NCBI GenBank assembly: GCA_021809805.1
Contig: JAJZKA010000004.1
Span: forward strand, 1 to 52,675
From: Actinomycetes bacterium
GTDB lineage: Bacteria; Actinomycetota; Acidimicrobiia; Acidimicrobiales; Bog-793
Length of the DNA stretch: 52,675 nucleotides
Direction of reading: 5' to 3'
Part shown: piece by piece, positions 9,432 to 48,242 of the stretch
Layout of the letters: every line of letters begins with the position of its first letter
Position numbering within the stretch: position 1 is the stretch's first letter
Program-made: the position numbers and the translations under genes
Notes under the pieces: generated by a model
Database searches by the model: none
Seen by the model: only the letters and a program-made list of their open reading frames with translations
What the model was told of the DNA's origin: nothing

Positions 9432-10210
9432 CAGCCCGCCTGGTGACTCGTTGAGGCTGGGTCGAGCGCAAGGGCGATTGCGTTCTCCGCCGAGAGCTGA
9501 GCGATAGCCGCCGCGTCGACCGAGGGGACGGAGACATCGATCACTGCTCCCCCGGCGGTAGCGAGCGTTACGTCAGCAACCACCACATGATTGAGCACGG
9601 TGCTGCCCGGAGTGACGGTCGCGATGTCAACGCCTCGGCTGGGGAGGGCCGCCGCCGCCCCGCGAGTGCCGCCCCCAGCGGCCGCTGTTGATCCTCCGCC
9701 GGCGCTTGCCGACCCGGAGGCGTAGATGACAGCGACCCGGTCGCCAGCGACAAGACCGGCTCCGGGGTATTGGCCGACGCGAAGGGCAATGCCGACGAGT
9801 TGGTCGTGCGATGGCGCCGCAGGTGGCTGGAGCATGCTTGGTGCCAGCAGTGTCCCGGGGGCTACGTAGGTCCAGACTTGGTGGCGGAGCACCCCGTCCT
9901 CCGCGCCGACTGCGAGCGCTGCAAAGCCCGTTCCGCGCACGCTTGCAACGGCGAGGTCGCTCGCTTCAAGGGTTGCGCCGGGCGCGAGCGGCTTGGTGAC
10001 GACAAGAACGGAGGTCGTCTTGCTTCCGCGTTGGTAGATGGAGGCGAACACCACGGCGGCGACAACGACTAGAAGCCCGGAGATGGCCGCGAAGAGCATG
10101 CGTCGCGAGGCGCCGGGATTGGCGCGTGAGCGCGGAAGCCGCGCCTGCCATTCTGCGGCGCCGTTCTTGGTGGGCTGGCGACTCGGACGTCGCTGCAGGA
10201 CGGTTGCCAT
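9431..10210 (-). CDS. SAF-domain CpaB/RcpC-like pilus protein
   Basis: TM helix, then VLVVTKPLAPGATLEASDL (SAF) and LVAGDRVAV. Leaderless ATG 10210 lies 6 nt after -10 TACCAT. Confidence 0.8.
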   Translation of the reverse strand: MATVLQRRPSRQPTKNGAAEWQARLPRSRANPGASRRMLFAAISGLLVVVAAVVFASIYQRGSKTTSVLVVTKPLAPGATLEASDLAVASVRGTGFAALAVGAEDGVLRHQVWTYVAPGTLLAPSMLQPPAAPSHDQLVGIALRVGQYPGAGLVAGDRVAVIYASGSASAGGGSTAAAGGGTRGAAAALPSRGVDIATVTPGSTVLNHVVVADVTLATAGGAVIDVSVPSVDAAAIAQLSAENAIALALDPASTSHQAG

Positions 10211-10216
10211 GCGGCG

Positions 10217-10258
10217 ATGGTAACCAGAGAGTGACACGCGGCTAAGGGAGTGTCACTC
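10217..10258 (-). promoter_or_regulatory. Motif promoter of the tad operon: GAGTGACAC-N12-GTGTCACTC palindrome, -10 TACCAT
   Basis: Perfect 9-bp inverted repeat at 10229-10237 and 10250-10258. 27 nt from the distal half to TACCAT, then 6 nt to ATG. Confidence 0.75.
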
Positions 10259-10293
10259 GTTCCTTTCGCTGCATTGCCTACGAAGCGGGGAAT

Positions 10294-10821
10294 TCAGCTA
10301 TGGAAATGCTGCTCCGCAACAGGCGTCGCGTCGTCCTGCGCCAACTGGCTGCGGTCGGCGGTCACTGCACCCGCCCGCACGCGGCGAGCGCGAGCCCGTT
10401 CGTCGCGGCCCGCGGCGAGGTTCGCCGCCCGGGCGGGAGTGACGCCGATCTCACGTCCCACGAGCGTCCATGAGCGGAGCTGGCGATGCAGCTGGGCGGC
10501 TGCTTGCTGGCGGATGTCCTTTGCTTCGGAGCGGACGACGTCCGCGACGATCAGTGCTCGCTTGGCGCGCTCTGCGAGCGGGAGTCGTTCAAGGTAGGCC
10601 CGGAATGCGTCGACGGGCGAGATCGCGCCGGTGACCCGGAGAGCCACACAGCGCTCGCAGAGCATCTCCGAGCGCCCGCTTGCGAGCGGGACAAGTTCTC
10701 GCCACACGTCGGGAGAGGTGCAGCCATCGCACCGGACGTCCCCCCTTGTGCTCGCCGGCACCTCGTCATCGTCGTCGTACTGGAAGCCGCTCCCCCACTC
10801 GTCGGCGTTCGAGAGTTCCAC
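10294..10821 (-). CDS. Hypothetical protein with Zn-finger (CDGC...CERC) and HTH-like segment
   Basis: Two CxxC pairs; SWTLVGREIGVTPARAANL is HTH-like. TAGGAT-N6-GTG leaderless start. Confidence 0.55.
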   Translation of the reverse strand: MELSNADEWGSGFQYDDDDEVPASTRGDVRCDGCTSPDVWRELVPLASGRSEMLCERCVALRVTGAISPVDAFRAYLERLPLAERAKRALIVADVVRSEAKDIRQQAAAQLHRQLRSWTLVGREIGVTPARAANLAAGRDERARARRVRAGAVTADRSQLAQDDATPVAEQHFHS

Positions 10822-10945
10822 GCTTCGATCCTATCGCGCGCCCGATAGGTCAGGCCGGTGGCGGGGTCCTGGTAACGGGAGATCCTCGCCTATCGCCCGT
10901 GCGATACGGCAGAACGATGGGCGCCGTCGCTCCTAGTCCAGACCC

Positions 10946-11192
10946 ATAGTGACACCGTAGTGGCTCCGATGCCACTATGGGCAGCTTGCGCAGCGCGTAT
11001 TCGCCCTGGTAGGTGTTCCGGTGAGCCGGCGCCACCGCGGCGTTGCCTCGTGGTGGGCCCGATGTGGCCCCGTAGTGGCAACAATCCCGCACCGGCGTCA
11101 CGCCGATGGCGTCGCGTACTGACTTGCGGGCGGGCGCGGTGTTGAGGCATAGTCACACCGGGCTGTCATCGGGGCCGACCCGATGTAACAAC
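10946..11192. repeat. Degenerate 11-mer array (about RTAGTGGCACC), candidate centromere (parS/parC)
   Basis: ATAGTGACACC, GTAGTGGCTCC and inverted GATGCCACTAT (10946-10978); GATGTGGCCCC and GTAGTGGCAAC (11061-11082); ATAGTCACACC, GATGTAACAAC. Directly upstream of parA. Confidence 0.6.
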
Positions 11193-11214
11193 GAACGATC
11201 ATCGGGGAGCTCGG

Positions 11215-12090
11215 GTGCCAACCATCATCGCTGTGGCGAACGGAAAGGGCGGCGTCGGCAAGACAAGCCTCGCAGCACATCTCGCCGGGCTGGCCGCGCT
11301 GTCGGGTTGGCGCACGCTCGCCATTGACCTCGACCCGCAAGCGAATCTCGCGCGGGATCTCGGATATTTGGAGCGCGACGAGAACGATGGGGGAGAGGGA
11401 CTCTTCCTCGCTGTCATCGCGAGTCAGACCCCCGCCCCCATCACGGATGTGCGGAAGAACCTTGACGCGATCAGCGGTGGCCCCGGTACCCGGAAGTTGA
11501 GCAACAACCTCGCGATGGGGGCGCACAACCTGCAGAACACGGGGCTCGATGCTCTTCGCGACGCGCTGGCTCCGCTGGTCGCCGAGTATGACCTGGTGGT
11601 CCTCGATTTGCCGCCTGGCGAGGCGTACGTCCAGCAGGCCGCATTCCGAATGGCCGATCACGTCATCATCCCGACCACCGGGGACGACGCGGCTAATGAC
11701 GGCCTGTCCCTCGTTCTCGAGAACTACGAGGCAGCCCGAGCCGCGAACCCCGCGCTCACCGTCCTCGGCATCGTCGTGACCCAGATGCAAGTGGGCGCGA
11801 AGGCAATGCTCCGGGAGACGATTGAGGATCTTGAGAGCATCGTGGAAGGGGAAGTGCGGATCTTCGAGCCGCCGGTTCGCTACGCGAAGAAGGCGGCACG
11901 CGATTGCCGGCACCAAGGCCTGCTGGCGTTCGAGTACGAGGAGGCCATGGCCAGGGCGCCGAAGTGGTGGGAAGCTCGGCGTTCCGGCGCCAAGGCACAG
12001 AGTTTCGCCGACAATGCAGGCGGCCTCGCCGGCGACTACCAGCGACTCACAGAGGCGATTCTGCAGGCCGCTACAGCTGAGGCGGGGTAG
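11215..12090 (+). CDS. parA: ParA family partition ATPase (no N-terminal HTH)
   Basis: NGKGGVGKT, DLDPQANL, YDLVVLDLPP. Confidence 0.95.
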   Translation: MPTIIAVANGKGGVGKTSLAAHLAGLAALSGWRTLAIDLDPQANLARDLGYLERDENDGGEGLFLAVIASQTPAPITDVRKNLDAISGGPGTRKLSNNLAMGAHNLQNTGLDALRDALAPLVAEYDLVVLDLPPGEAYVQQAAFRMADHVIIPTTGDDAANDGLSLVLENYEAARAANPALTVLGIVVTQMQVGAKAMLRETIEDLESIVEGEVRIFEPPVRYAKKAARDCRHQGLLAFEYEEAMARAPKWWEARRSGAKAQSFADNAGGLAGDYQRLTEAILQAATAEAG

Positions 12091-12104
12091 GACAGCAGAC
12101 AGCC

Positions 12105-14321: not shown

Positions 14322-14368
14322 AGGCCGCAGGGTAGTGACCCGCCCGCCCCCCGGGGCAGGGGGTGGCT

Positions 14369-17395: not shown

Positions 17396-17401
17396 TCCGG
17401 A

Positions 17402-18253
17402 GTGACACTCACTGCCGCGAGTGCCATGCCCCTAACTACTCTCGCCATTGAGTCGCACTGTGCGCCGCCTATTCGGGAGAGTCACCATGCCGGAGCTAGA
17501 GAGAAGGAAGCGAGCGATGGTGAGCGGGACAATTCAACTCGTTCGGACCGCTGGCTGACGGCCGAACGCTGGACGGCTATGCGAGCGCTCTTCTGGCTAG
17601 GCGTGCCGATGCTCGCTGCTGCCGCCCTCGTGATCGCTTGGCGTGGTCATTCAGCAGTCTCCACCGCCGAGATGCGCTGGGTGGTGTACCGGCGCACCCT
17701 CCTTGTGCAGGCGACTACTACGGCGGCCGCGGTCCTGGTCGTTGGTAACGGCATCCTCGGCGCGCCGGCCCTTGGGATCACTCAATGGGATAGCTTCTCT
17801 TATTGTTGGATGGGCGCCTTTTTGACCGTGTGCACAGTGGTGTCGCTTGGCGCGCTCCGCGGACACCAGTCATCGGAGACACGCTTTGCTCCCCGAACGG
17901 ACGCCGAGATTTGGTTACTGCTCGTCGTCGGAGCTGGAGCCGCCGTCAGCGAAGAGGTGGTGTTCCGCGGCTACGTCATGAGATGGTTGGCCGAGCTCGG
18001 CGACCGTGGCTGGACGGTGATTGTCATCGCAGCGGTTCTCTTCGCAGTCCCGCATGCGAACCAGGGGGCGAGCGCGGCCCTTGTCGCGCTTGCGCTCGGC
18101 GTTCTCTTCGGGGGCGCTTACGTTGCAGCGGGGGTGCTCTGGGCACCGATCGGGCTACACCTCGCCCTCAACCTTGGGCTCGGCGCTTCGCGAGCCGCCA
18201 ACCGAAGGCGTCAGCGCCACATAGCAGAGAGCCCTCTTGCTACCTGGCGATAG
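17402..18253 (+). CDS. CPBP (CAAX/Abi) intramembrane metalloprotease; start uncertain
   Basis: EEVVFRG, FAVPH and HLALN motifs in a multi-TM protein. Confidence 0.9.
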   Translation: MTLTAASAMPLTTLAIESHCAPPIRESHHAGAREKEASDGERDNSTRSDRWLTAERWTAMRALFWLGVPMLAAAALVIAWRGHSAVSTAEMRWVVYRRTLLVQATTTAAAVLVVGNGILGAPALGITQWDSFSYCWMGAFLTVCTVVSLGALRGHQSSETRFAPRTDAEIWLLLVVGAGAAVSEEVVFRGYVMRWLAELGDRGWTVIVIAAVLFAVPHANQGASAALVALALGVLFGGAYVAAGVLWAPIGLHLALNLGLGASRAANRRRQRHIAESPLATWR

Positions 18254-19438: not shown

Positions 19439-19765
19439 TCAGAGGGAGACGATCCGCCGGGCCCTGCTGGAGATGCGAGCTCGTTCCTCGTCTGTCGTGC
19501 CGCCCCAGACTCCCGTCAGATCACGGTGCTTCATCGCGTATTCGAGGCAGTGTTCTCGCACGCAGCAGCCCGCGCAGTGCTGCTTCGCCGCTGCGGGCCA
19601 CACCGAAGCATCCTCGACCTCGTCCGGCCGCTGGAAGATCTCCGGGTCCATGCCGGCGCAGCTCGCTTTGCCCATCCACGGTTGCCGCCCGCTTCGCAAG
19701 AACGCGACGGCCGACGGCGGCAGACTCTGGAGCTTGGCTTCCGAGTCCTTGGTCGTATTGCTCAC
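19439..19765 (-). CDS. WhiB-family Fe-S transcription regulator
   Basis: WMGKASC...CAGCCVREHC...GVWGG; GTG overlaps the upstream stop. Confidence 0.92.
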   Translation of the reverse strand: MSNTTKDSEAKLQSLPPSAVAFLRSGRQPWMGKASCAGMDPEIFQRPDEVEDASVWPAAAKQHCAGCCVREHCLEYAMKHRDLTGVWGGTTDEERARISSRARRIVSL

Positions 19766-20247
19766 TGTCTCGCCCCCATCTGCGCCGCCGCCTCCAGGGG
19801 GTCGGTTACACCACGAGCGATAAGGGAGCGTGCCGCCTGTGGGGAGAACCCTGCGGCCGACCAGGCCCTGGCGGCGGTGACAGCGGACCCAAGGCCGGCA
19901 GCGAACCAGGGCGCCGCCAGCTCGGGGCTGTACCCGAGGGCGTCCCACTGAGCGGCGATTTCAGGCGTCCGCGCTCCTGCCGAGCGCCAGGCCATTGCCC
20001 GGGGCAATCCGTAGCCGCTCATCGTGAACCGAGACACCTCCGCTGGACTTTCGAAGCCAGCGTCGAGGTATTGCAGAGCAGATGCTGAGGCGAAGCCGGC
20101 TGACCGCCAACGCAGCGCCAAGCTCAACGAATGCGACGGGCGATGGCTCTTCCACACGAGGCGTTCAGCAGGGTCGATGCCGTGCGCTAACCAGCGCTCG
20201 ACCGAATCGAGCTCCTCAACGGCCTCGTTTACCACGTCGGCGAACAT
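19762..20247 (-). CDS. Small helical-repeat protein (W-x-x-x-G-[FY]-S-P-x-x-A repeats)
   Basis: WRSAGFAS, YLDAGFESP, WDALGYSP, WFAAGLGS, WSAAGFSP at about 13-14 aa period. Confidence 0.7.
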   Translation of the reverse strand: MFADVVNEAVEELDSVERWLAHGIDPAERLVWKSHRPSHSLSLALRWRSAGFASASALQYLDAGFESPAEVSRFTMSGYGLPRAMAWRSAGARTPEIAAQWDALGYSPELAAPWFAAGLGSAVTAARAWSAAGFSPQAARSLIARGVTDPLEAAAQMGARQ

Positions 20248-20255
20248 CGACAACT

Positions 20256-20298
20256 AGCCTAGAAGACGAGTGACACGCGCTCGTTACAGTGTCACTCG
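20256..20298 (-). promoter_or_regulatory. Motif promoter: CGAGTGACAC-N12-GTGTCACTCG, -10 TAGGCT
   Basis: Perfect 10-bp IR at 20267-20276 and 20289-20298; N27 to TAGGCT; ATG 20247 8 nt later. Confidence 0.75.
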
Positions 20299-22085: not shown

Positions 22086-24452
22086 TCAGGCCGGCTGGGC
22101 GCTCTCCGCTTCCGGAGCCTCCGCCGCTTCTACGGCGACGAGACCGGGAACGGCTGCGATCGCCCGGCGGAGCACCTGGGCAACGGCATCGCGATCAATG
22201 TGTCGGAGGTCCTCTTCGCAGCCGTGCTGAAGCACGCAGCGAGGGCAGCCGAGGCCTTCGCACGGGCAACCGTGGAGCAGGTGGAGAGCCATCTCAAGGA
22301 CGTTTCCGCACGCCTCCAGGATCTGCTCTGCTATCCCCGAGCCACCTTCGTTGGCGTCGATGACCCACATTGAGTCGCCACCGGTCGTCGTCTCAACGTC
22401 TCGCGACCCGCAGCCGACGACGACCGGGGCCACCTTTGCGACCAGGTGCTCGATCACGTGAACGAGCTCCTTGTCGCATCCGGGGAAGCGGATCTCCGTG
22501 CCAATAGTCCGGAACGCATACGTGAGAGGCGACAAACTGACGTTGGAGACGAGGGGCGAATTGCCGGCGGTGCGGTCGCGAGTGGTCAGCCGGTAGCCCA
22601 CGGTCATCACCATCATGGAAACGGCGCTCCTACGCAGCCGAAGCCCGGCTGCAGCGAAGTCGTCGTAGTCGTCACCGGCCTCGAGGTGTTTCACGATCAT
22701 CGGCTCCGTGGACGCGTACTGATCGGGGTGAGAGGAGACCCGCGCAGTCTTCGACTTGAGGTCGAGGCTCGACACCCGGTATTGCCTCCCCTGGAAGCGA
22801 TAGATGGCGCCTGGGTAGACCTCTTTCAAGGCCCGCGAGTATTCCAGGTCTTCGAGGAGCCGAGGCTGGCCGTGCCCGCCTGCGTCAGGTGCCGCAAGTA
22901 CCCGGACCTGCTCTTCGGAGCGTCCGATCACGCGAAAGCTCCGGGCAAACCCTCCGCGTGTCTTCACCTCGGTCGCCAACGCGCGATCGGGGCGGAGTTT
23001 CAGCACCTCATCGCGCGCCGCTTGCTGGGCTACCGGGATGGCCACCGGAGAAAACTGCTGGAGCTCGTCGACAGGGAGTGGGATCTCCTCTGCAGTGCAG
23101 CGGAGGTGCTTCCGGGCGATGCCTGGGTTCTCGAGTGCCACCGTCGCGTGTTCCACCTCGCCCTCGAAGAGCAGCGATGGGCACGCCGCGAGGTAACGGG
23201 ACACCGGATCGTCGCCGAGGACGACCACGATGGTGCCTGAGCGACCAGCTCGCCCGACTCGGCCCGCCTGCTGACGGAGCGAGGAGAGGCTGCCTGGGTA
23301 GCCAGCGATGATGACCGCATCTAGGCCGCCGATGTCGATGCCCACTTCCAACGCGTTTGTGCTGATGACGAATTGCAGCTTGCCGGTGCGCAGGTCGTGC
23401 TCGAGGAGCCGTCGATCCTTCGCGTCATAGCCCGAGCGGTATGCGGCGACTGACTTCCCGAACTCGGAGATCGCCTCGTGCGAGAGATACTCGACCATGT
23501 GTCGGGAGCTCCCGAAGGCGATGCCTTGCGCGCCCACGCTGCGGAGTACGCGAAGCGGTTCGAGGCAGAACTTGGTGAAGCTCGTGGACCCCTGAGTCGC
23601 GTCAAGCACGACGACGTGGCGGACAGGCGACGGAGCGCCGGAGTTAGTCACCGCAACGACTTCTTTGCCGCAGAGGGCTGAGGCGTGCTCCGCGGGATTG
23701 GCGATCGTCGCACTCGCGAACACGAAGAGCGGGTCGGCCCCGTAAAACCTCGCTACGCGTTGAATCCTGCGCAGGACGTAGGCCGCGTGTGCACCTGCGA
23801 TTCCTGAGTGCAAATGCGCCTCATCGACCACAACGACCTGCAACTTCGAGAAAAAGCGCCTCCACTTCTCGTGCCAAGGCAACACGAGATGAAGCATGGC
23901 GACGTTCGACAAGACCACGCGTGAGCGCGCCCTGATGTCTTCGCGTAGCGAGCGGTCTACGTCTCCGTCGTAACAGGCGACTCCGAGATCGAGGCCGAGT
24001 GTCCGCTCAAGGTCGCGAAATGAGGCGAGCTGGTCGTGCTCGAGTGCCTTCATTGGGTAGATGCAAAGCGCCGTCCCGCCTCTGACTCGGCTAATGCGTT
24101 CCAAGACCGCGAGCTGGAACGAGAGCGTCTTACCGGAGGCTGTGGGCGTGGCGAGCACGAACGACTTGCCCTCTGCGGCAAGTGCAAGCGCCTGCGCCTG
24201 GTGAGAGTACGGCCGTTGGCCCGACAACGCCACGAGGGCGTCACAAAGGGGTGAGACGCCCGTGGGTAGCAATGCATGAACCGGCGGGCGACCCGGTAGG
24301 TCGAAATGGGCGATCGCCGCCGGATGTTCGCGGAGCATTGCATACGCCCGGTCTGCAGCATCGCCAGCAACGCCCGCGGTCCCCACCTCCGGCGCATCCT
24401 CGACCTGGAAGAGCCCTGCGAGTGCGTCAGCCGGAGAAGAAGACGCGGTCAC
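22086..24452 (-). CDS. DEAD/DEAH-box SF2 helicase with C-terminal DUF1998 (MrfA/SftH-like)
   Basis: YSHQ, PTASGKT, DEAH, SATIAN, ALEVGIDIGGLD, QQAGRVGR, CPCEGLGCPRC. Leaderless GTG 24452 lies 6 nt after TACCAT. Confidence 0.93.
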   Translation of the reverse strand: MTASSSPADALAGLFQVEDAPEVGTAGVAGDAADRAYAMLREHPAAIAHFDLPGRPPVHALLPTGVSPLCDALVALSGQRPYSHQAQALALAAEGKSFVLATPTASGKTLSFQLAVLERISRVRGGTALCIYPMKALEHDQLASFRDLERTLGLDLGVACYDGDVDRSLREDIRARSRVVLSNVAMLHLVLPWHEKWRRFFSKLQVVVVDEAHLHSGIAGAHAAYVLRRIQRVARFYGADPLFVFASATIANPAEHASALCGKEVVAVTNSGAPSPVRHVVVLDATQGSTSFTKFCLEPLRVLRSVGAQGIAFGSSRHMVEYLSHEAISEFGKSVAAYRSGYDAKDRRLLEHDLRTGKLQFVISTNALEVGIDIGGLDAVIIAGYPGSLSSLRQQAGRVGRAGRSGTIVVVLGDDPVSRYLAACPSLLFEGEVEHATVALENPGIARKHLRCTAEEIPLPVDELQQFSPVAIPVAQQAARDEVLKLRPDRALATEVKTRGGFARSFRVIGRSEEQVRVLAAPDAGGHGQPRLLEDLEYSRALKEVYPGAIYRFQGRQYRVSSLDLKSKTARVSSHPDQYASTEPMIVKHLEAGDDYDDFAAAGLRLRRSAVSMMVMTVGYRLTTRDRTAGNSPLVSNVSLSPLTYAFRTIGTEIRFPGCDKELVHVIEHLVAKVAPVVVGCGSRDVETTTGGDSMWVIDANEGGSGIAEQILEACGNVLEMALHLLHGCPCEGLGCPRCVLQHGCEEDLRHIDRDAVAQVLRRAIAAVPGLVAVEAAEAPEAESAQPA

Positions 24453-24458
24453 GACGGC

Positions 24459-24567
24459 ATGGTACATAGAGACTTTCCCGGAATCACAGTGGTGTCACTC
24501 GCCCAGGGACCACGGCAAATACTGGCGTGGCACCCACCTACGGCGTCGCGAGCCGCGGTGCGACACT
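24459..24567. promoter_or_regulatory. Divergent pair of motif promoters
   Basis: Minus: GAGTGACAC(24500-24492)-N27-TACCAT-N6-GTG. Plus: GCGTGGCAC(24525-24533)-N28-GACACT-N7-ATG 24575. Confidence 0.7.
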
Positions 24568-24574
24568 GCCCCGC

Positions 24575-24829
24575 ATGGTCCACCCGAGCCAGCGGCACGC
24601 AGACAGTGAGCGGGACGTCCACCTCGACGTTGAGGAAGCACGCGGGCTCGTCACGTGCGCACTGGGCGATGGGCGGAACGCTTACCTGCTCGCGGCACTC
24701 TCACCGCGAGAGTCAGCGCTTGTGGCGTTGCTTGCTCAGTTCGTCATTCACGTGGCGCAGCAGTCGCGCCGGCCCGGCACGGAGGAGGAGATATGGGCGA
24801 GGTTCTGTCTCTCGCAAGAGACCCACTAG
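24575..24829 (+). CDS. Small hypothetical protein
   Basis: 84 aa; leaderless-type start behind a motif promoter; overlaps the Prim-Pol start. Confidence 0.5.
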   Translation: MVHPSQRHADSERDVHLDVEEARGLVTCALGDGRNAYLLAALSPRESALVALLAQFVIHVAQQSRRPGTEEEIWARFCLSQETH

Positions 24830-26279: not shown

Positions 26280-26321
26280 GAGTGACACTCGAATGACCTC
26301 CCGTGTCACGCCTGGCAAAAT
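26280..26321 (+). promoter_or_regulatory. Motif promoter GAGTGACAC-N14-GTGTCACGC, extended -10 tggCAAAAT
   Basis: N27 from the left half to CAAAAT (26316-26321). Confidence 0.65.
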
Positions 26322-27559: not shown

Positions 27560-27745
27560 GCGAAATGCCGGTTGTCATGCAAAGTGTAGCGGCGGCACGT
27601 CCGACAAGCGAGGTCCGCAGTGTCACCTCGCACGCGGTACCCACGGTGTCACGCTGAGTCACATCTGACAGTCAAGCCGCCCGACTCACGAATCCCCGTG
27701 GCACCCCCTGCCGCATTGAAGAGCTCGGTTTCTAGGGTCCCCTCC

Positions 27746-29272
27746 ATGGCGTTTGTCCAGGAAGTAGAGCGGCCGGCGGCCGAAGCCGGCGGGCTCAAGA
27801 GGCAGCAGTTTCCGTACGCGTCAGAGGACGGTTTCCGGCACACGATGGTGGCGCACGGTGCTGAACTTGACTGCGCGGATCACCCGATTGACCGGACGAT
27901 GGGTTTCGATAGCCCCTGCCACGACCTGATCGGCCGGTGGGCGGAGGCGGTCCGAACTGAAAGCCCGTCCGTACTCCCGTATCCGCTTCGCCCGATCGCC
28001 GACGAGGCGATCCGGTCGCGCTTGCTCGTCGGCTTAGCGCGGCTCGAGGCAGGCGAGGACCTCGACGGTGTGAGCTTCGGGCGACGGGGCCTCGCCGCGA
28101 CGACCGAGCTCGATGCCGCAATGCTGAGGGCGGCCACCTGGGCCCGTCGCCTCGGCGGCATCGAGCGCGCTCGCTCGGTGCTCATGCGCGGCGATGTCCC
28201 CCATCTCGAAGCCGCCGTGCTGTCGGAGCCCGTGCTGCCGTGGGAGCGGTCCGCCGTCAGTCGTCTATCAGCCGGTGAGTCGCTGACGAGCTTTGCTGGC
28301 GCTGCCGGCTTCGACTTCGAGGTGTCACTCGGCCGGACCTTCTATGAGGACAACTGGGACCCCGAGATCGCCGAGCACGTCGCAGATCCCGACGCGTACA
28401 TCGTGCGTCGGCGTCACCCAGAGACCGGACAGCCCTACAAGCTGGGCAACGTCGGGAAGGACTACAAGCCTTTCCAGGCGACGGACCTGCTCGACATGGG
28501 GCTCCAGCTTGCAGCCTCGCTGGATGACAACGGGCGAATGGTTCGGAACGTGCGAGCGGCGGTCGAAGACCTCGGCGCGTTCATGTGCGTGTCGATCGAC
28601 CTTCAGGCCGAGTCGCTTGTTGCCGGTCGATACGAGGTCGGCACCCAGGTCGTCCTCACGGCCCGCCATGACGGCGGCGGCAGCGTGAAGATCCGTGCAA
28701 ACCCCTACGTCACCAATGTGACCACCGACCGGCGGGTGCCTCTCGGGCAGACGGCGCTTCACGGCGAGCGAGTGCTCGCCGCGCGGCACACGAAGAGTGT
28801 TGAGGAGCGGGCCAAGGGTCTGGCGGACTCGGTCCACGAGATGATCGCCCTCGTCGATGCGTTCTACGTCGATGCAGGGCGGCTTGCGCACACAGAGTGC
28901 ACGCGACCGGCCGTCGAGGAGATGGTCTCGACCGTGTGGGCCGGGATCAAAAGCGAGACGCGAAAGGAGCGACAGGAGCAAGTCGAGTTGCGGCTTGCTG
29001 AGCTGGCTGGCAGCGGCCACGCGAACCTGTTCGACCTCTACATCGCGACCGCGATGGTGGCGACGGCAACGCAACGAGGAACACACCGGACCCTGCGCGG
29101 GGAACTGGAGGGCACAGTCGCCCGACGCCGCACCGCGGCGTTCGCGAAGGCTCGCGATCTTCGGGTGCACCCGGCGTCGCCGCTGCGCCCGTTGCCGGGC
29201 CCTGAGCACGACTTCGAGATGGCCAACACTTACGACCCGGTCGCCGAGACGCTGTTCGGCCCGTCGCTCTAA
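27746..29272 (+). CDS. DUF932-family (phage/plasmid TIGR03299-like) protein with N-terminal extension
   Basis: AGFDFEV, LGNVGKDYKPFQ, HDGGGS, RHTKS; TAGGGT-N7-ATG with CCGTGGCAC N28 upstream. Confidence 0.75.
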   Translation: MAFVQEVERPAAEAGGLKRQQFPYASEDGFRHTMVAHGAELDCADHPIDRTMGFDSPCHDLIGRWAEAVRTESPSVLPYPLRPIADEAIRSRLLVGLARLEAGEDLDGVSFGRRGLAATTELDAAMLRAATWARRLGGIERARSVLMRGDVPHLEAAVLSEPVLPWERSAVSRLSAGESLTSFAGAAGFDFEVSLGRTFYEDNWDPEIAEHVADPDAYIVRRRHPETGQPYKLGNVGKDYKPFQATDLLDMGLQLAASLDDNGRMVRNVRAAVEDLGAFMCVSIDLQAESLVAGRYEVGTQVVLTARHDGGGSVKIRANPYVTNVTTDRRVPLGQTALHGERVLAARHTKSVEERAKGLADSVHEMIALVDAFYVDAGRLAHTECTRPAVEEMVSTVWAGIKSETRKERQEQVELRLAELAGSGHANLFDLYIATAMVATATQRGTHRTLRGELEGTVARRRTAAFAKARDLRVHPASPLRPLPGPEHDFEMANTYDPVAETLFGPSL

Positions 29273-34819: not shown

Positions 34820-34854
34820 GAGTGACAGTCGGACGAACGGGTGTCACCTACGAT
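34820..34854 (+). promoter_or_regulatory. Motif palindrome GAGTGACAG-N12-GTGTCACCT overlapping -10 TACGAT
   Basis: Upstream of the LysM-BTAD gene; the -10 is only N20 from the left half, unlike the other copies. Confidence 0.6.
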
Positions 34855-37819: not shown

Positions 37820-37861
37820 GAGTGACACGCCATGGGCGGCGTAGTGTCACAGGGTTAGCCT
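37820..37861 (+). promoter_or_regulatory. Motif promoter GAGTGACAC-N15-GTGTCACAG, -10 TAGCCT
   Basis: N27 to TAGCCT (37856-37861), N6 to ATG 37868. Confidence 0.75.
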
Positions 37862-37867
37862 CCAGGT

Positions 37868-38881
37868 ATGAGCGTCAATGGAGAGCCGCCAGAAGGGCGT
37901 CCCACGCGCAGCAGCGTGCATCTGCTTCTGACGGGCGGAACCATCTGCCTCGCACTTGCGCTCGTCGGGATCATCGGCGCCGGAGAAGTCCGCTCACTCC
38001 CCACGTCATCGGCTAGCTCTCGCCGGCCCACTCCGGCCGCAACCACCGCAATCCCCTCAACGTCCACCTCCACAGCCACAACGACAACCGTCACGCCCAC
38101 AACGACGCAGCCAAGAGCGAAGAGCCGTCGCCGTCCTCCCCCACGCGCTGCTGCAACGACCACTACCGCACCGATTGCCCGCGGTCACCGAGTGACGCCT
38201 GGGGAGCGCCACCGGCGCGGCCTTGACTCCGCGTCGACACAGCCGCCGCCGCCGCCGACCACGACGACCACGACCGCACCGATCACCACGACCGAGCCTC
38301 TCTCGCGTCGCCCGGTTCCATCGACGACGACTACACCGTCCACCACGACGACCACGACTACACCGTCCACCACGACGACCACGACCGCACCGATCACCAC
38401 GACCGAGCCGCGTCCGAGGCCCTCGACGACAACGACGGTGCCCCGCCGTCGTCCGGCGCCGACCACTACCACTCCGCGGAAGCCTCCAACGACAACAGTC
38501 CCTCCGTCCCACCCCTCAACGACGACGACTGCGCCACCCGCCCGAAACACCACGACCACCAGCACCCAGGCGCCTGGACCCGCGAGCTCCGCCGTACAGA
38601 GCGTCGACGACGGATCCCTGTCGGGGCCGCTGTACTCCGCCAATATGTCGCTCGACCCAGCACCGGGTGCGCTATCGATAACGGCCACGTGGGGCGGGAC
38701 CGCCAATCTGTCGATCTCCGTCGACTGCGGCGGAGCGTCCGCTACACAGGCCGGCGAGTCGGGCCTCTATGTGACCGTGAACTCGCCGGGCGGAGCGTGC
38801 TCGGTAACGGTGGACGAGCCCGGAGCAACGCCGAGCAACGTCTCGTATCAACTGGTCATCGACTACCAGAAAGCGGCGTGA
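37868..38881 (+). CDS. Membrane-anchored/secreted Thr/Pro-rich protein with C-terminal beta domain
   Basis: N-terminal hydrophobic helix, poly-Thr repeats, about 95-aa beta-rich C-terminus with two Cys. Confidence 0.75.
   Translation: MSVNGEPPEGRPTRSSVHLLLTGGTICLALALVGIIGAGEVRSLPTSSASSRRPTPAATTAIPSTSTSTATTTTVTPTTTQPRAKSRRRPPPRAAATTTTAPIARGHRVTPGERHRRGLDSASTQPPPPPTTTTTTAPITTTEPLSRRPVPSTTTTPSTTTTTTTPSTTTTTTAPITTTEPRPRPSTTTTVPRRRPAPTTTTPRKPPTTTVPPSHPSTTTTAPPARNTTTTSTQAPGPASSAVQSVDDGSLSGPLYSANMSLDPAPGALSITATWGGTANLSISVDCGGASATQAGESGLYVTVNSPGGACSVTVDEPGATPSNVSYQLVIDYQKAA
38258..38409 (+). repeat. Coding repeats in the Thr-rich linker
   Basis: ACCACGACGACCACGACCGCACCGATCACCACGACCGAGCC occurs twice, plus a 27-bp tandem unit. 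Confidence 0.8.
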
Positions 38882-43826: not shown

Positions 43827-45248
43827 CTACTTGCAGGCGTGCCCGGCCCAGTGGCCGAGGGTGACCGCCGCCTTGGTGAGCACCTGCGCGTCGGCGATGA
43901 GTTCGGTGCGCTGCGCCCCTACCGTGCGCGCCGGGTCGTCGCCGACACGGCCGAGAATCGTTCGGGCGTTGGTAGCGGCCTCGGACGCGTTGCGCGCTGT
44001 CGGGTCCAGCTGGTTGATGCGAGCGAGGTACGCAAGCACCGCTATGTCGTGACCGAGGGGCGCTGTGACCGCTCCTCCCGTTGCCCCCCGGAGAGGAATC
44101 GCCTCGATGCTGTGGAGGTCTGTGCACACGCTCGCGACCGAGACCGTCTTCACCGACGTTGTGGCACCGGTGGCCGCGGATGCCGGCGCCCGACGGTGGC
44201 TTGCCATGGCGAGCCCGCCGACGACGATGAGTAGCACAACCACCGCTGCTGCACCGATGACGATGCCGCGCCGCCGGCGCCCTCTCGGTCGCGGGAGCTT
44301 CAGTCCAAGACCGAGCCGCCTCGGCTCCGACTCCTCAAAGTCGAACGCGTTGTCGTCGTCTTCGTAGTCGATCTCGTCGAAGGCGGGGTCGTCGTCGAAA
44401 GCGAAGTCATCCTCCCCGTCGGTCGTCTGCGACAGTGCGGAGTCCGCGGCGCCGCCGGCGTCAGCCGTTGCGAGAGGGGTGTTCGGCTCGTCCACTGGTG
44501 CCTCCGTCAGCTCAGGCCTGCTGGCTTCGTCGTCATCGCAGCTCACCGCCACTGTCACACCCTGTTCGTAGTCTACCTTCTGATTGGCCGCGGTGTCGGT
44601 GTCGACAGTGACACTAGAGAGGGTCTGCGACACTTCCGTGTCACTGGCCTGCGCCGCCTGCGACGGCCAAGACGTCGACGCCATTTCGCTGCTGTGGAAG
44701 CGCTCCATCGCTCGAGCGATTCGCTCATCTGTGACGGTGATTCCGAGGACCGAGAGATCAAGCGACCAGGTGGCCTCAGATCGCGTTGACCACAGGCGTA
44801 CGGCGTCGACGAGATGCTGCCGAGTGTCGCCGAGCGACCACCCGTTCACAGTTGCGAGGTGGCGCAGAGCCGCCTCTCCTCGGGCCGCGTCGACCTCGGC
44901 ACTGATCGTCTTTACGCCGTAGCACGGCGCGCAGAGCGAGACGACCCGCAAGAGGGTCTGCGTCAGCGCGATGTCGTTGTACTCCCACACCTCCAGAGCG
45001 TGGAGCTTGCCGTCCCCAAAGCCGCATATCTCGCAACGGCGCTGCGCTGCTTCATGGCTCGCGACCCGGACCGCATCCCATTCGCTTGGCTCGAGGAACA
45101 CGCGCAGGGAGGCGAACCAGGACGTGCGCGGGACGAGCTCGACAGTAAGAGGCAATCCCATCGGCGTAGCGGCGCGGGCGGCGCGCACGGCCTCTCGGAG
45201 AGCGGGGGCGGTCGGACGCTCGTTGGAAACGAGGTTGTGCTCAGTCAC
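43827..45248 (-). CDS. HNH-like (probably inactive) domain + acidic linker + TM + extracytoplasmic helical domain
   Basis: LTVELVP.TSW, CEICG, EVWEY, LCAPC; RRRR then a TM helix; GTG overlaps the end of dnaB. Confidence 0.7.
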   Translation of the reverse strand: MTEHNLVSNERPTAPALREAVRAARAATPMGLPLTVELVPRTSWFASLRVFLEPSEWDAVRVASHEAAQRRCEICGFGDGKLHALEVWEYNDIALTQTLLRVVSLCAPCYGVKTISAEVDAARGEAALRHLATVNGWSLGDTRQHLVDAVRLWSTRSEATWSLDLSVLGITVTDERIARAMERFHSSEMASTSWPSQAAQASDTEVSQTLSSVTVDTDTAANQKVDYEQGVTVAVSCDDDEASRPELTEAPVDEPNTPLATADAGGAADSALSQTTDGEDDFAFDDDPAFDEIDYEDDDNAFDFEESEPRRLGLGLKLPRPRGRRRRGIVIGAAAVVVLLIVVGGLAMASHRRAPASAATGATTSVKTVSVASVCTDLHSIEAIPLRGATGGAVTAPLGHDIAVLAYLARINQLDPTARNASEAATNARTILGRVGDDPARTVGAQRTELIADAQVLTKAAVTLGHWAGHACK

Positions 45249-46560
45249 TGGAAACCTCTTGAGGGTCAATGGCGTCGGTGAAGTCGCCTCGCCAGCCAAA
45301 TCTCACGACCGCTCCAGGCTGCGAGTTGCGCGCCTTGGCGACTTCGACCTCGAGCACGTCTGGACCTGGAGTGGGGTTGTACGCGCCCTCGCGGTAAGCG
45401 AGCAGGACGACATCAGCGCTCTCCTCGATGGCCCCCGTGTCCTTCAGGTCCTCAAGTCGCGGATGTTTGTCGGATCGGCTCTCAACATTCCGGCTGATTT
45501 GTGACAGAGCGAGAACCGGCGTCTCGATGCGCTTGGGCATCACCTTCAGACGCCGCATCTCCGCGGACAGCTCGGCTGTGCGGTTGTCTCCTCGCTGCTC
45601 GAACAGCTGCACGTAGTCGATCACTGCCAGTCCGAGCGGCCGACCAATACGCTGGCGGAGCCTTGAAGCCGTGAGTTCGACGTAGGCGGCACTGAGTGGG
45701 GTGCGGTCGTCGATGTAGAGGGGAAGGCCGACGAGCTCCTCGCCGGCTCGACGAATCCGGTCCATCTCGGCAGCGTGGACCTTGCCGTGAAGCAGCTTCG
45801 CGTAGGGGACGTGCGCCAGCATCGAGAGGAGGCGCCAGATCAGCTCGGTCTCGCTCATCTCGCTCGAGAAGAAGAGCGCCGGGGCGCCGCTGCGAGCGAC
45901 GCGAAGCGCGCACCCGAGAGCGAGCGACGTCTTCCCCATCGAAGGTCGGCCGCCGAGAACGACGAGGCTGGTGCGAAGCGTGAGGACAGCGTCGTCGAGC
46001 GACGGGTATCCGAGCGACGCGATCGGTGAACTTATGCCGTGCGCGGCGACGGCATTGTCCATCGCTTCCGACGCGAGAACCGGCCCGCGCCGGCGCGAGT
46101 CATCGACTCCAAGGAGGAGCGACAAGGCTGACTCCAGGCGGCGCTCCACCGAGACGAGATCTCTGCCCTCCACCAGCCGGCCGCAGGCCTCGAGCAGCTG
46201 CCCACGCGCGTCACGGCGAACCGCGTGATCCGCGACGACGGCTGCCCACGAGCGGATGTCATCGAGCGTCGCCTCTTGCGGAAGGCTACGTAGCCGAGAG
46301 ATGACGTCGCCCTCTACCCCCGCTACGGCGAGCTGGTCTGCCAGTGCCACCACTTCGACCGGTCGGCCGGCGCACTCGAGGTCTCTGATCGCACCCCAGG
46401 TCGTGGAGAGGACCGCGTTGGTGAACTGCGTTGGCTCGACGAGACCCAGGGCCTCAAGCCGCAGCGTTCTGTCGGAGATCGCTGCGCCGACGAGTCGCCG
46501 TTCGGCCTCGTGGCTCGGGGAGCGAGATCCTTCCGTCCGTGGCGCCTCGACGAGGGTCAC
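45241..46560 (-). CDS. dnaB: Replicative DNA helicase, DnaB-like
   Basis: EAERRLVGA N-terminal domain, GRPSMGKT, SSEM, IDYVQL, LSQISR, GAIEESAD, KARN. Confidence 0.93.
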   Translation of the reverse strand: MTLVEAPRTEGSRSPSHEAERRLVGAAISDRTLRLEALGLVEPTQFTNAVLSTTWGAIRDLECAGRPVEVVALADQLAVAGVEGDVISRLRSLPQEATLDDIRSWAAVVADHAVRRDARGQLLEACGRLVEGRDLVSVERRLESALSLLLGVDDSRRRGPVLASEAMDNAVAAHGISSPIASLGYPSLDDAVLTLRTSLVVLGGRPSMGKTSLALGCALRVARSGAPALFFSSEMSETELIWRLLSMLAHVPYAKLLHGKVHAAEMDRIRRAGEELVGLPLYIDDRTPLSAAYVELTASRLRQRIGRPLGLAVIDYVQLFEQRGDNRTAELSAEMRRLKVMPKRIETPVLALSQISRNVESRSDKHPRLEDLKDTGAIEESADVVLLAYREGAYNPTPGPDVLEVEVAKARNSQPGAVVRFGWRGDFTDAIDPQEVSSD

Positions 46561-47180
46561 TTCGCCGTCCTCCGAGACGCGCCGACAAGTTGAAGCTCGA
46601 TGCAGTCGTCACAGAGCCGCTCGATGATCCTGCGGTCGCCAGGCGGGGATGGCGCCAGTCGTCGCTCGAGCTCAGCGCGATCCGCGTTCATCGTGACGAT
46701 CGTGGGCCGTCGGTTGGCCCATCGCTCGTTCAACAGGCGGTAGAGGCGGGAAAGCTCGCGCGCCGAGAGATCGCCGTCCACGAGGTACAAGAGGTCGTCG
46801 AGCACCAACAGGGAAGCCCGCTCGAGCAACGTGAAGTCCGCTTCGCCGGTCGCGTACGGATTGAGCACCTTGACCGTCGAAGCGAAGTGAGCGTCCACGG
46901 GCCGAGCGGCGACGTAACGCCGCAACAAAGCGGCAGCGAGGGTCGTCTTACCGAAGCCCACAGGACCTTCAAGGAAGAGCGTCCCCGACGGGGCATCTAC
47001 CCACCGCACCGCATCGTCCAGGAGCGCCATCTCGGCACGCCCGAAGCCGGCACGCAAGGCGGCGACATCCGCATCGGCGAACCGCGTGGGTAGCCCGACG
47101 ACGCGCCCGCAGGGCTCGGGGTTGGGAGCGTCACCGACTTGGAGTGTGGCAAGCAAGTCGCTCACCGTCTGGCGGCTCAT
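46557..47180 (-). CDS. DnaC/IstB-like ATPase (helicase loader)
   Basis: LPTRFADA, GPVGFGKT, LLVLDDL, LLNERW..RRPTIVTMN, RIIERL; ATG 47180 overlaps the upstream stop. Confidence 0.88.
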   Translation of the reverse strand: MSRQTVSDLLATLQVGDAPNPEPCGRVVGLPTRFADADVAALRAGFGRAEMALLDDAVRWVDAPSGTLFLEGPVGFGKTTLAAALLRRYVAARPVDAHFASTVKVLNPYATGEADFTLLERASLLVLDDLLYLVDGDLSARELSRLYRLLNERWANRRPTIVTMNADRAELERRLAPSPPGDRRIIERLCDDCIELQLVGASRRTAK

Positions 47181-48193
47181 GCGCGCCTCGATCCTGCCGC
47201 CCACGCCTCCGCGGACGAGGGGCTCGCCGTCGCTATCCCGGTGTCCTGCCGCGCCAGGAAGAGGAAGTGTTCGATCCGACGCGCGTCGCGCAGGATGAGC
47301 TCGATGTCGTTGTAGACCGTGCGTCGGTCGTTGCGCCCCGCGTAGAAGGCGTCGCGTTTCCACGCGCCGACAGCGTCGATGAGGTCGCGCTCGCTGTAGT
47401 CGCGAAGGGCCCTCGCGATCGCCCGCCGGCGGGAGTCGGTGAGCTTCGCCTGTGTGCGTCCCGTGGCCGCGACCCACGCGTCGAAGACGCGTCGAATGGC
47501 GCCCGTGTCAGGAGCGGCAACGAGCCGACGCCCCTCCGCGGGCGAGCTGGCGCCGCCCCGCTCGGCCGCGAGTTGTGGCACAAGGACCTCGAGTGCACAG
47601 CCTCGGCAGACCGCTGCGGCTGGAGGCATCTCCTCCGCGTCGGGTGGGAGCCATCCGAGTCGGCTAACCAAAGCCGCGTCCCAGAGCTCCAGCCCTCTCC
47701 CGACGACGTAGCCCATGCCGGCATCGTCAGGAGCCGCGATCCACTCGACGGAGTGGCCGCTCAGGCAGACGCAGCACCGAACGCGCTGACGCTCGCCAGG
47801 TATGAGGTCAATGGCGTCGGCATAGGCGGTCCGCTCGGCCCCCGATAGCCGACCGTCGTTGTACTCAGCCGGCGGAGCATCGTCATCCGGCACCAGTCCA
47901 GGGACCGCCGCACAGACGAGCTGACGAGACGACCCGGCGACCACCGAGCGCACGAGTCCGGAGGCCACGAGCACCTCGATTGAGTCCGCCATGGCCTCGG
48001 CCGTGGTCGTCTCCGGCGCGCCCCGGGATAGCAGCGCGCAGAGATCGTCGCCGACGACAATCCCCGGCCAGGCGAGCAAGCGGATCGCGAGGAGACTCCG
48101 CAGCGCCCCCGCCGGCAAGGCGGCAGTCGCCGGATCGGTCAGAGTGGCCGAGAGAAGCCCGGCGAGCTCGTCCGCGCGGTGGGTCTTCTTCAT
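47177..48193 (-). CDS. Phage-type replication initiator (replisome organiser-like)
   Basis: C-terminal VFDAW...LTDSRRRAIARAL...FYAGRNDRRTVYNDIELILRD; precedes loader and DnaB. Leaderless ATG 48193 lies 6 nt after TACCTT. Confidence 0.7.
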   Translation of the reverse strand: MKKTHRADELAGLLSATLTDPATAALPAGALRSLLAIRLLAWPGIVVGDDLCALLSRGAPETTTAEAMADSIEVLVASGLVRSVVAGSSRQLVCAAVPGLVPDDDAPPAEYNDGRLSGAERTAYADAIDLIPGERQRVRCCVCLSGHSVEWIAAPDDAGMGYVVGRGLELWDAALVSRLGWLPPDAEEMPPAAAVCRGCALEVLVPQLAAERGGASSPAEGRRLVAAPDTGAIRRVFDAWVAATGRTQAKLTDSRRRAIARALRDYSERDLIDAVGAWKRDAFYAGRNDRRTVYNDIELILRDARRIEHFLFLARQDTGIATASPSSAEAWAAGSRRA

Positions 48194-48199
48194 GGCCCG

Positions 48200-48242
48200 A
48201 AGGTATCCCGCGAGTGACATGGCGGCCGTCTGTGTCACTCGC
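48200..48242 (-). promoter_or_regulatory. Motif promoter GCGAGTGACAC-N11-ATGTCACTCGC, -10 TACCTT
   Basis: IR at 48210-48219 and 48233-48242; N26 to TACCTT; N6 to ATG. Confidence 0.75.

Follow-up and report, generated by a model that had tools for sequence, protein, structure and literature searches.

INTRODUCTION

Element-wide regulons under the control of one master regulator are already known. In the AcaCD and SetCD systems of IncA/C plasmids and SXT/R391 elements, one motif lies before many transfer-related operons of a conjugative element, in a class 2 activator position (PMC4207636). Little is known about how conjugative elements are regulated in actinobacteria, particularly in lineages without cultured members. 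Here we describe a short sequence box, (C)GAGTGACAC with the core GTGRCAC, that recurs at one distance upstream of a dozen candidate promoters on a mobile element of an Acidimicrobiales bacterium. The DNA analyzed is the whole of contig C178 (JAJZKA010000004.1 of assembly GCA_021809805.1; 52,675 bases), referred to below as the window. From the sequence context, we favor with moderate confidence the reading that the box is bound by a transcription factor specific to the element, which would activate promoters lacking a -35 element.

In other actinobacteria, WhiB-like proteins sit on region 4 of sigma-A. The WhiB family is specific to Actinobacteria (PMC6282962). WhiA binds GACAC as a monomer (PMC3781837), and its motif in Mycobacterium tuberculosis is GACACGCC (PMC13473873). 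In Streptomyces, WhiA and WhiB co-activate the leaderless sepX promoter, where GACAC lies upstream of the -35 element and is read, further upstream and on the non-template strand, by the sigma-4-like domain of WhiA; the DNA-binding domain of WhiA and sigma region 4 read related sequences similarly, and neither the orientation nor the spacing of published WhiA sites is constant (PMC10243135). WhiB7 is tethered to sigma-A region 4 and reads a short sequence just upstream of the -35 element with its own AT-hook (PMC10243135). A literature search on the box, on actinobacterial conjugative regulation, and on conjugation in Acidimicrobiia returned nothing relevant, and the full-text matches to the 9-mer that were listed looked like primers or unrelated uses.

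RESULTS

One box at one distance upstream of twelve candidate promoters

The assembly comprises 3.57 Mb in 210 contigs (68.6% G+C; genome completeness, 95%). A first-pass annotation of the window had reported nine sites at which the box stands 26 to 28 nucleotides (nt) upstream of a [T/C/G]ANNNT hexamer, and all nine are present. Three further sites of the same build lie on two other contigs (C122:993-, C122:14601-, and C207:2769-), giving 12 in all. With the hexamer set at -12 to -7, the box occupies about -48 to -40, with its center near -44, and GAGTGACAC is always on the non-template strand. The orientation is constant, and the distance from box to hexamer is constant to ±1 nt across the sites.

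In mycobacterial start-site maps, leaderless genes have a TANNNT-type -10 element and a start codon 6 to 8 nt downstream. At 8 of the 12 sites, the ATG or GTG of a long open reading frame (ORF) follows 6 to 8 nt past the hexamer, an arrangement that looks leaderless. Within the window, this is the case at seven of nine sites, as previously claimed, with ORFs of 84 to 788 amino acids (aa). The modules of the window are given below, where N27 denotes a spacer of 27 nt between box and hexamer and the next distance runs from the hexamer to the predicted leaderless start.

10208..10258, minus strand: module of the tad-like pilus operon; box GAGTGACAC at 10258-10250, N27, -10 TACCAT at 10222-10217, 6 nt, ATG 10210
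10237-10229, minus strand: inverted second copy of the box within 10208..10258
17400..17442, plus strand: module of the CPBP gene; box at 17400-17408, N28, -10 TACTCT at 17437-17442, degenerate second half GTGCCAT
20245..20297, minus strand: module of the P0006-WhiB operon; box at 20297-20289, N27, -10 TAGGCT at 20261-20256, 8 nt, ATG 20247
20276-20268, minus strand: perfect inverted copy within the P0006-WhiB module
24450..24500, minus strand: module of the DEAD/MZB (MrfA-like) helicase gene; box at 24500-24492, N27, -10 TACCAT at 24464-24459, 6 nt, GTG 24452; no second half
24525..24577, plus strand: module of a small ORF and the PrimPol-SSB gene, divergent partner of the 24500 site; variant box GCGTGGCAC at 24525-24533, N28, -10 GACACT at 24562-24567, 7 nt, ATG 24575
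26280..26321, plus strand: module of the gene for a 161-aa protein (26370-26855); box at 26280-26288, N27, -10 CAAAAT at 26316-26321
26303-26311, plus strand: inverted copy GTGTCACGC of the 26280 module
27696..27748, plus strand: module of the DUF932 / AAA_5 / DUF2201-VWA operon; variant box CCGTGGCAC at 27696-27704, N28, -10 TAGGGT at 27733-27738, 7 nt, ATG 27746
37820..37870, plus strand: module of the gene for a Thr/Pro-rich protein; box at 37820-37828, N27, -10 TAGCCT at 37856-37861, 6 nt, ATG 37868
37844-37850, plus strand: core of the inverted copy of the 37820 module
48191..48240, minus strand: module of the genes for a 338-aa protein of no known type, an IstB-like loader, and DnaB; box at 48240-48232, N26, -10 TACCTT at 48205-48200, 6 nt, ATG 48193

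Two of these modules are not leaderless. At 17400, the nearest start is a TTG with a reading frame of about 37 codons; the most likely start of the CPBP gene is ATG 17579, behind this short ORF or a leader of about 130 nt. At 26280, a leader is present, and the first long ORF begins at ATG 26370 behind a Shine-Dalgarno-like GGGAGG stretch. The 48240 box overlaps the end of the upstream pentapeptide-repeat gene, and its inverted copy is ATGTCACTC. The gene call at 20289-21167 is ambiguous: a 292-aa plus-strand ORF that opens with the GTG of the 20289 half-site competes with minus-strand ORFs, and no family was found for either.

A position matrix built from the 12 sites confined the information to the nine positions of the box and to the preceding C, which is preferred in 8 of 12. 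The scored flanks, 6 nt on the upstream side and 15 nt on the downstream side, were not conserved, and a single copied repeat therefore does not account for the sites. On the non-template strand, the 3' end of the box reads GACAC at 10 sites and GGCAC at two. The hexamer is weak at three sites, being GACACT at the PrimPol-SSB and relaxase promoters and CAAAAT at a third. The box promoters carry no -35 consensus, and a scan of 10000-29999 for promoters with a sigma-70-type -35/-10 consensus found none where 1.5 were expected.

The box is enriched in the window, in non-coding DNA, and at promoter distance

The window contains 10 copies of the exact 9-mer, compared with a mean of 0.6 and a maximum of 3 in 200 Markov-1 simulations. 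When one mismatch was allowed, 31 matches were found versus 15.8 ± 4.1 in 100 shuffles (largest, 27), and the core GTGRCAC gave 37 matches versus 16.4 ± 3.9. The composite pattern GTGRCAC-N26-28-[TCG]ANNNT was found 11 times versus 1.1 ± 1.0 (largest, 5). Eight of the 10 exact copies lie in non-coding DNA, which makes up 12.3% of the window by our own gene map (binomial P = 2e-6). A hexamer at N26-28 followed 7 of 8 independent exact-9-mer loci in the window (P = 4e-8) but 0 of 13 exact 9-mers outside C178, C122, and C207. The density of the exact 9-mer is 190 per Mb in the window versus 4.5 per Mb in the remaining 3.52 Mb, where 16 copies occur, three of them on C122. All of these counts lie far outside chance expectation.

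The pattern GAGTGACAC-N26-28-TANNNT was also counted in 92 genomes of the same family. It occurs seven times in this genome and zero or one time in each of the other 91, which is about the rate of a reversed control pattern; the match in a congeneric genome, ahead of an MFS-type gene, was set aside as chance. Inside the window, the exact 9-mer at 28322-28330 (minus strand) was rejected as a promoter site; it lies within the DUF932 gene, has no hexamer at N26-28, and is probably a chance occurrence. Contigs assembled from four DNA runs and compared with 10000-29999 contained fragmentary variants that differ by about 1 to 3%. Among the 40 of 362 differences listed, none fell within a box, the nearest being at 26302, one base before the second half-site, and these are too few to serve as evidence of conservation. 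Two contig ends (C46:38 and C156:100) share an identical stretch that includes the exact 9-mer without promoter geometry, and this stretch is probably a repeat that broke the assembly.

The boxes lie on a conjugative element split over contigs

Pfam scans of the ORFs of the window revealed a gene set typical of a mobile element:

112-1746: group II intron reverse transcriptase/maturase gene at the left contig end
4033-10210: tad-like pilus operon, with a SAF/FlgA-like first gene followed by TadA/TadB/TadC-type genes
22086-24452: MrfA-like DEAD/MZB helicase gene
elsewhere in the window: genes for ParA, an SNF2 helicase, a CPBP (Rce1-like) protease, and a tyrosine integrase
elsewhere in the window: PrimPol-SSB fusion gene and the DUF932 / AAA_5 / DUF2201-VWA operon
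elsewhere in the window: LysM protein gene, and DnaB gene with an IstB-like loader

Contig C122 (21 kb; 1-21052) carries boxes at 993, 14601, and 16871, two of which have the full build. At C122:14601, a perfect box is followed by N27, GACACT, 6 nt, and ATG 14553, the start of a relaxase gene (C122:11293-14553; 1,086 aa; TrwC, E = 6e-49; AAA_30, E = 1e-51) that thus stands directly under a box promoter. Since the box lies directly before a leaderless-looking TrwC relaxase gene on a second contig, the element is conjugative and split over contigs. The other genes of C122 encode a PLD nuclease, a 1,760-aa helicase-like protein, a Gp3-like recombination directionality factor, an N6/N4 DNA methylase, and a third WhiB-like protein. 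At C207:2769-, a perfect core with an inverted copy is followed by TACCGT at N28; the genes divergent from it encode an RNase-H-like protein and a second MrfA-like helicase. The GTG that follows opens no long ORF, and so this promoter would have a leader. We conclude that the element spans at least C178 and C122 and probably C207. The genome contains two MrfA-like DEAD/MZB helicase genes (22086-24452 and C207:3907-6165), each of which adjoins a box site, and that on C207 is preceded by an RNase-H-like exonuclease gene.

Proteins that cluster with P0001, an orphan encoded in the window, were found on eight contigs of public collections. The longest is 83 kb, and a more complete copy of the element therefore exists. 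The evidence comes from one element and from near-identical copies in mine-drainage and related metagenomes of several studies. A megablast search of 10000-34000 against plasmids and phages gave no match. The PrimPol-SSB protein had matches in 26 of 401 genomes of the order, all at ≤51% identity and none with the box build, and no confirmed relative among metagenome contigs. The relaxase had matches in 85 of the 401 genomes, at ≤41% identity apart from its own copy (both tallies include the unpublished genomes G342, G132, G257, and G232). At eight loci of relaxase relatives (12 regions), no repeated upstream k-mer was found before leaderless-like starts; a plain count of 9-mers at these loci was dominated by coding bias and was discarded as uninformative.

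The perfect pair GAGTGACAC-N11-15-GTGTCACTC was found at 56 loci in genome_contigs, where about 40 were estimated by chance, and at 62 loci in metagenome_contigs, and GAGTGACAC-N11-15-GTGTCAC was found at 46 loci in viral_contigs. None of these loci joins several promoter-type copies with an element-like protein; the sole protein matches were to a group II intron reverse transcriptase, an integrase, and a short helicase stretch. One phage contig from IMG/VR (L140) carries five or six direct and inverted copies of (G)AGTGACAC(T) at 10300-10620, between HNH endonuclease and large terminase genes. This region looks like a packaging (cos-type) region, and the contig has no proteins in common with the element.

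An inverted second copy follows co-directional genes

Many sites have a second, inverted copy of the box that begins 11 to 15 nt downstream of the first and ends 3 to 7 nt before the hexamer. The half-site spacing (11, 12, 12, 12, 12, 14, and 15 nt) varies while the distance to the -10 hexamer is conserved, in agreement with the earlier description. The core of the inverted copy is perfect at five sites (10258, 20297, 26280, 37820, and C207), matches at 6 of 7 positions at 48240 and C122:993 and at 5 of 7 positions at 17400, and is absent at 24500, 24525, 27696, and C122:14601. Thus, the upstream copy has the core at 12/12 sites, whereas the downstream copy is absent at 4/12 and imperfect at 3.

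The four sites without a second copy, together with 17400, lie in divergent intergenic regions. When the pair at 34820 (see below) was counted and 20297 was left out on account of its ambiguous upstream gene call, an inverted copy was present at 6/6 sites with a co-directional upstream gene versus 1/6 divergent sites (Fisher P = 0.015). Predicted RNA folds of the inverted sites ranged from -16 to -23 kcal/mol (z, -1.6 to -2.7), and three single-box sites that were folded gave z values of -0.1 to 0.4. Because the inverted copy follows co-directional genes and is mostly missing from divergent regions, these data suggest that it adds an insulator or terminator role against read-through.

The same observations could mean that the inverted pairs do no more than form RNA or DNA hairpins, serving as terminators or processing sites between operons, and that their nearness to promoters is incidental. 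Besides the pairs behind co-directional genes, one pair sits at a gene end without a promoter, the predicted stems are of the strength given above, and 10000-29999 holds a single canonical terminator-like site, not at a box, where 8.2 were expected, so that another signal would be needed. However, no T-run follows the box stems, and no box site was among the terminator-like matches in that region. A terminator stem also need not hold one sequence over a dozen sites, and the four single-box sites, which have no hairpin, keep both the -10 distance and the leaderless-looking start. We consider this explanation highly improbable.

Box-like copies also occur outside the standard build:

34820..34847, plus strand: GAGTGACAG-N12-GTGTCAC as an inverted pair, with gene 34377-34781 on one side and the LysM protein gene on the other
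44606..44646, no strand assigned: inverted pair CAGTGACAC-N23-GTGTCACTG, inside the long ORF 43827-45299
27620..27654, minus strand: GCGTGACAC and GTGACAC, two copies resembling the box that lie upstream of the DUF5343 gene; the distance to TACACT (31 nt) departs from the standard
10947..11079, plus strand: box variant TAGTGACAC and three TAGTGGC/GCCACTA repeats, upstream of the ParA gene

At 34820 the geometry deviates, with a -10-like TACGAT 20 nt past the box and a TTG start at 34872 after a Shine-Dalgarno-like stretch. The repeats upstream of the ParA gene (TAGTGGC at 10958 and 11073; GCCACTA at 10971) are similar to the core of the box; a partition site or a ParA operator of related sequence may lie here.

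Position and orientation fit contact with RNA polymerase better than occlusion

The fixed orientation and distance of the box and the conservation of its upstream copy fit contact with RNA polymerase better than plain occlusion. A single oriented site is held at ±1 nt while the scored flanks drift, the conserved copy is the one upstream, and four sites have no copy inside the promoter; the weak hexamers at the relaxase and PrimPol promoters likewise favor activation. In the mechanism that we propose, a factor bound at -48 to -40, just upstream of the -35 position, would act like a class II activator and help RNA polymerase carrying the housekeeping sigma-A. The promoters so helped would have a usable -10 hexamer and no -35 element, and most would yield leaderless mRNAs. 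Where a co-directional gene lies upstream, the second, inverted copy would form a hairpin with a 9-bp stem, or a double site, that insulates the promoter from read-through.

The predicted regulon comprises the tad-like pilus operon, the TrwC relaxase gene, the genes for DnaB, its loader, and a putative initiator, the PrimPol-SSB gene, the MrfA-like helicase gene, the DUF932/AAA/VWA operon, the WhiB-like operon, and several genes of no assigned function. This agrees with the first-pass proposal that one factor co-controls pilus, replication, and DNA-processing operons, and the predicted regulon now also reaches the relaxase gene on C122.

The first-pass annotation had also placed an activator near -43. 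Relative to the predicted starts, the box is centered there (-43/-44), and activation remains the preferred reading in view of the oriented site, its fixed distance, and the four sites without a second half; a repressor operator is an alternative. In that alternative, which we regard as possible but rather unlikely, the box would be the operator of a master repressor of the element that binds the inverted pair (about -48 to -19) and silences transfer, replication, and DNA-processing genes until induction, with single boxes being weaker. Element-wide operators near promoters are found in temperate actinophages. The inverted copy ends 3 to 7 nt before the -10 hexamer at 7 of 12 sites (8 with 17400), so that a pair covers the -35 position and the spacer; the -10 hexamers look usable alone, given that the candidate promoters of this host have no -35 signal; the two perfect pairs precede the pilus operon and the WhiB operon; and box pairs also occur away from promoters. 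On the other hand, occlusion does not need a spacing of ±1 nt in one orientation, the conserved copy lies outside the core promoter, the inner copy is missing at four sites and degenerate at others, and a half-site spacing of 11 to 15 nt is unusual for a rigid dimer. Members of four families (HTH_3, HTH_17, HTH_23, and RHH_1) were sought on C178, C122, and C207 and gave no match at E values up to 0.1, although the orphan proteins could still be repressors.

Several points limit or weigh against the favored explanation. First, 413 leaderless-like candidate promoters of the host also have no -35 signal, and actinobacterial promoters commonly work without a -35 element; a missing -35 element is therefore no proof that an activator is needed. 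Second, at 7 of the 12 sites (8 with the degenerate 17400) the second copy lies at -27 to -16, a position at which a bound protein should get in the way of the polymerase, as suits a repressor. Third, inverted pairs without promoter geometry occur at C122:16840-16871 (the end of the Gp3-like gene) and at 44606-44646, and the pair at 34820 has another spacing; at least one role of the box is therefore independent of the fixed distance. Fourth, the split between co-directional and divergent sites was noticed post hoc, in 12 sites and with our own gene calls. Fifth, no protein of the element could be assigned a DNA-reading domain, and P0001 and P0006 are near-orphans. Finally, searches of public genomes, metagenomes, and viral contigs turned up no diverged second element that carries this box. 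It is possible that one factor both activates and represses.

Candidate factors

The only recognizable transcription factors on C178, C122, and C207 are three WhiB-like proteins. The WhiB family (PF02467) has 10 matches in the genome, of which 3 are on C178 and C122. A profile search of the three contigs gave no match to Sigma70 r2, r4, or r4_2, HTH_WhiA, FlhC, or BTAD. Three of the regulators named by the first-pass annotation were not borne out: no BTAD domain was found on the contig, no RHH_1 partner was found, and 10294-10821, described there as a helix-turn-helix protein, encodes an orphan without a recognizable DNA-binding family. The candidates in the window are as follows:

19439..19765, minus strand: WhiB-like gene in second place of the operon that the perfect inverted pair at 20297 precedes; possible component of the factor
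49236..49652, minus strand: the other WhiB-like gene of the window; its protein has an extension of 40 aa at the C terminus
10294..10821, minus strand: gene for the orphan P0001 (175 aa), with a CxxC...CxxC stretch followed by helices; candidate regulator only
19762-20247, minus strand: gene for P0006 (161 aa), with repeats of about 17 residues, W-x3-G-F-x-P-x2-A-x2-W; first gene of the WhiB operon

The closest solved structure to the 19439-19765 protein is the Streptomyces WhiB of the WhiA/WhiB/RNA polymerase complex (8dy7_H; E = 4e-11), and WhiB7 is the weakest solved WhiB-like match (E = 4e-4). The operon of this gene carries one of the two perfect inverted pairs, the other being that before the pilus operon. 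The WhiB-like protein of C122 has a 105-aa C-terminal extension with a CGT...C..C stretch. No recognized family or DNA-binding motif was found in the C-terminal extensions of the two WhiB-like proteins, and a search with the C122 extension returned five matches, none of them named.

P0001 had no Pfam family even at E values up to 5, and its relatives among 5.8 billion proteins were itself and one protein of 79% identity. Leads from the Atlas (zinc ribbon and small helix-turn-helix families) all scored <0.9 and were rejected, and its single-sequence fold reached a predicted local distance difference test (pLDDT) score of 60. Its gene has a box-free, leaderless-type promoter of its own (TAGGAT, 6 nt, GTG 10821), which is overlapped by the perfect palindrome CCTATCG-N6-CGATAGG (10830-10849); with a third CCTATCG at 10889, this palindrome looks like the operator of a different regulator. 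For P0006, a word search found one near-identical relative and HMMER found 447 representatives, mostly long repeat proteins and many of 400 to 1,600 aa. Pfam scans of 10 of these gave only TPR matches, sub-threshold Decapeptide matches, and weak matches. The fold of P0006 is confident (pLDDT, 88), a helical repeat or solenoid without a match in the PDB at E values up to 0.001, and P0006 is therefore not recognizable as a DNA binder.

Because the three WhiB-like proteins are the only recognizable transcription factors on the element contigs, our working model is that a WhiB-like protein is tethered at the -35 position and that the box would be read by its own C-terminal extension or by an orphan partner.

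Comparison with WhiA/WhiB and WhiB7

The first-pass annotation had regarded the motif as undescribed. That view must be qualified, as GACAC, known from the literature as the WhiA motif, forms the end of 10 of the 12 boxes. The promoters could accordingly be read by a WhiA/WhiB pair of the host, with WhiA on GACAC and WhiB bridging to sigma-A, as at sepX. There are likenesses to sepX (PDB 8DY7/8DY9): both have an asymmetric GACAC motif on the non-template strand, upstream of the -35 position and before a leaderless or leaderless-looking gene, the geometry is close when compared without the exact sepX distance, and WhiB-like proteins, 10 in the host and 3 of them on the element contigs, are present. 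WhiA binding to GACAC and co-activation with WhiB are likewise described (PMC10243135, PMC13473873, PMC3781837).

Nevertheless, HTH_WhiA (PF02650) was found in 0 of 21 genomes (this genome and 20 relatives) and, in a sample of the phylum, in 0 of 8 genomes of the same order or class versus 74 of 121 genomes overall; LAGLIDADG_WhiA (PF14527) was not found in this genome (0/1). GACAC shows no positional peak in the 413 host candidates. The element box is conserved over 9 to 10 nt versus 5 to 8, reaching 4 to 5 nt past GACAC, and it is confined to the mobile element: the 9-mer is not enriched on the chromosome, where none of 13 copies has promoter geometry. Its orientation and distance are fixed, unlike those of the published WhiA sites (PMC10243135). 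Reading of the box by host WhiA is thus very unlikely, and we rejected it, keeping the WhiA/WhiB system as the nearest mechanistic model. WhiB7 resembles the WhiB-like proteins of the element, two of which have C-terminal extensions of about 40 and 105 aa, but WhiB7 reads an AT-rich minor groove, whereas the element box is GC-mixed and specific.

There is a slim chance that RNA polymerase itself reads the box, as a UP-like or displaced -35-like element, or that the box is part of a cassette that spread within the element, with no dedicated factor in either case. GTGACA is one base from the -35 consensus TTGACA, and no DNA-binding factor could be identified on the element. The similar reading of related sequences by the WhiA DNA-binding domain and sigma region 4 also favors this idea (PMC10243135). 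However, the gap of 28 nt between GTGACA and the -10 hexamer is far beyond sigma-70-type spacing, the three contigs carry no sigma-factor gene, and the box is not used by the candidate promoters of the host. A cassette is unlikely to have spread recently, given that the scored surroundings of the box are not conserved.

DISCUSSION

The interpretation of the shared promoter box as a co-control switch is plausible from the arrangement of the DNA. The nearest functional parallel is that proposed by the first-pass annotation, namely, the AcaCD/SetCD activators. In both cases, one motif precedes many transfer-related operons of a conjugative element; on the present element these are the pilus, relaxase, and replication operons, and the box would be centered near -44 of the predicted starts. 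The systems differ in that AcaCD and SetCD are FlhDC-family proteins of Gammaproteobacteria with a longer motif and with measured starts and binding, whereas the starts on the element are predicted ones. No match to FlhC (PF05280) was found in the genome, with FlhD not searched. The parallel is therefore one of function, and the regulon of the element is not a member of the AcaCD/SetCD family.

Operator sets of temperate actinophages, such as the conserved inverted repeats of phiC31 and the stoperators of mycobacteriophages, offer a second comparison. There, too, many copies of one short intergenic site in a mobile genome are tied to one regulator. Those sites, however, are repressor sites without a fixed -10 distance, whereas the present element is conjugative and no phage-type repressor family was found on it.

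A more specific version of the favored explanation is that the element, in a class where no searched genome yielded WhiA, has its own promoter code, in which a WhiB-like protein on sigma-A region 4 is combined with a DNA-reading module of as yet unrecognized type (an extension or an orphan partner) on a 10-nt box at -44. This would turn on all transfer, replication, and DNA-processing operons from leaderless promoters that have no -35 element, and the inverted pair would end upstream transcription. Such a code would be a second, independent solution to the problem solved by WhiA/WhiB; we offer it as a speculation that is unlikely as it stands.

The element is an unusually clean case, with a dozen promoters, one box, and one distance, most of them running straight into a start codon, and it therefore yields a sharp prediction of which genes are co-controlled. 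If the factor is a repressor, the box would define an ordinary but well-defined silencing system. If the factor is WhiB-based, it would show that WhiB-like proteins can gain sequence specificity without WhiA, and it would provide a compact, orthogonal promoter/activator pair for high-GC Gram-positive hosts.

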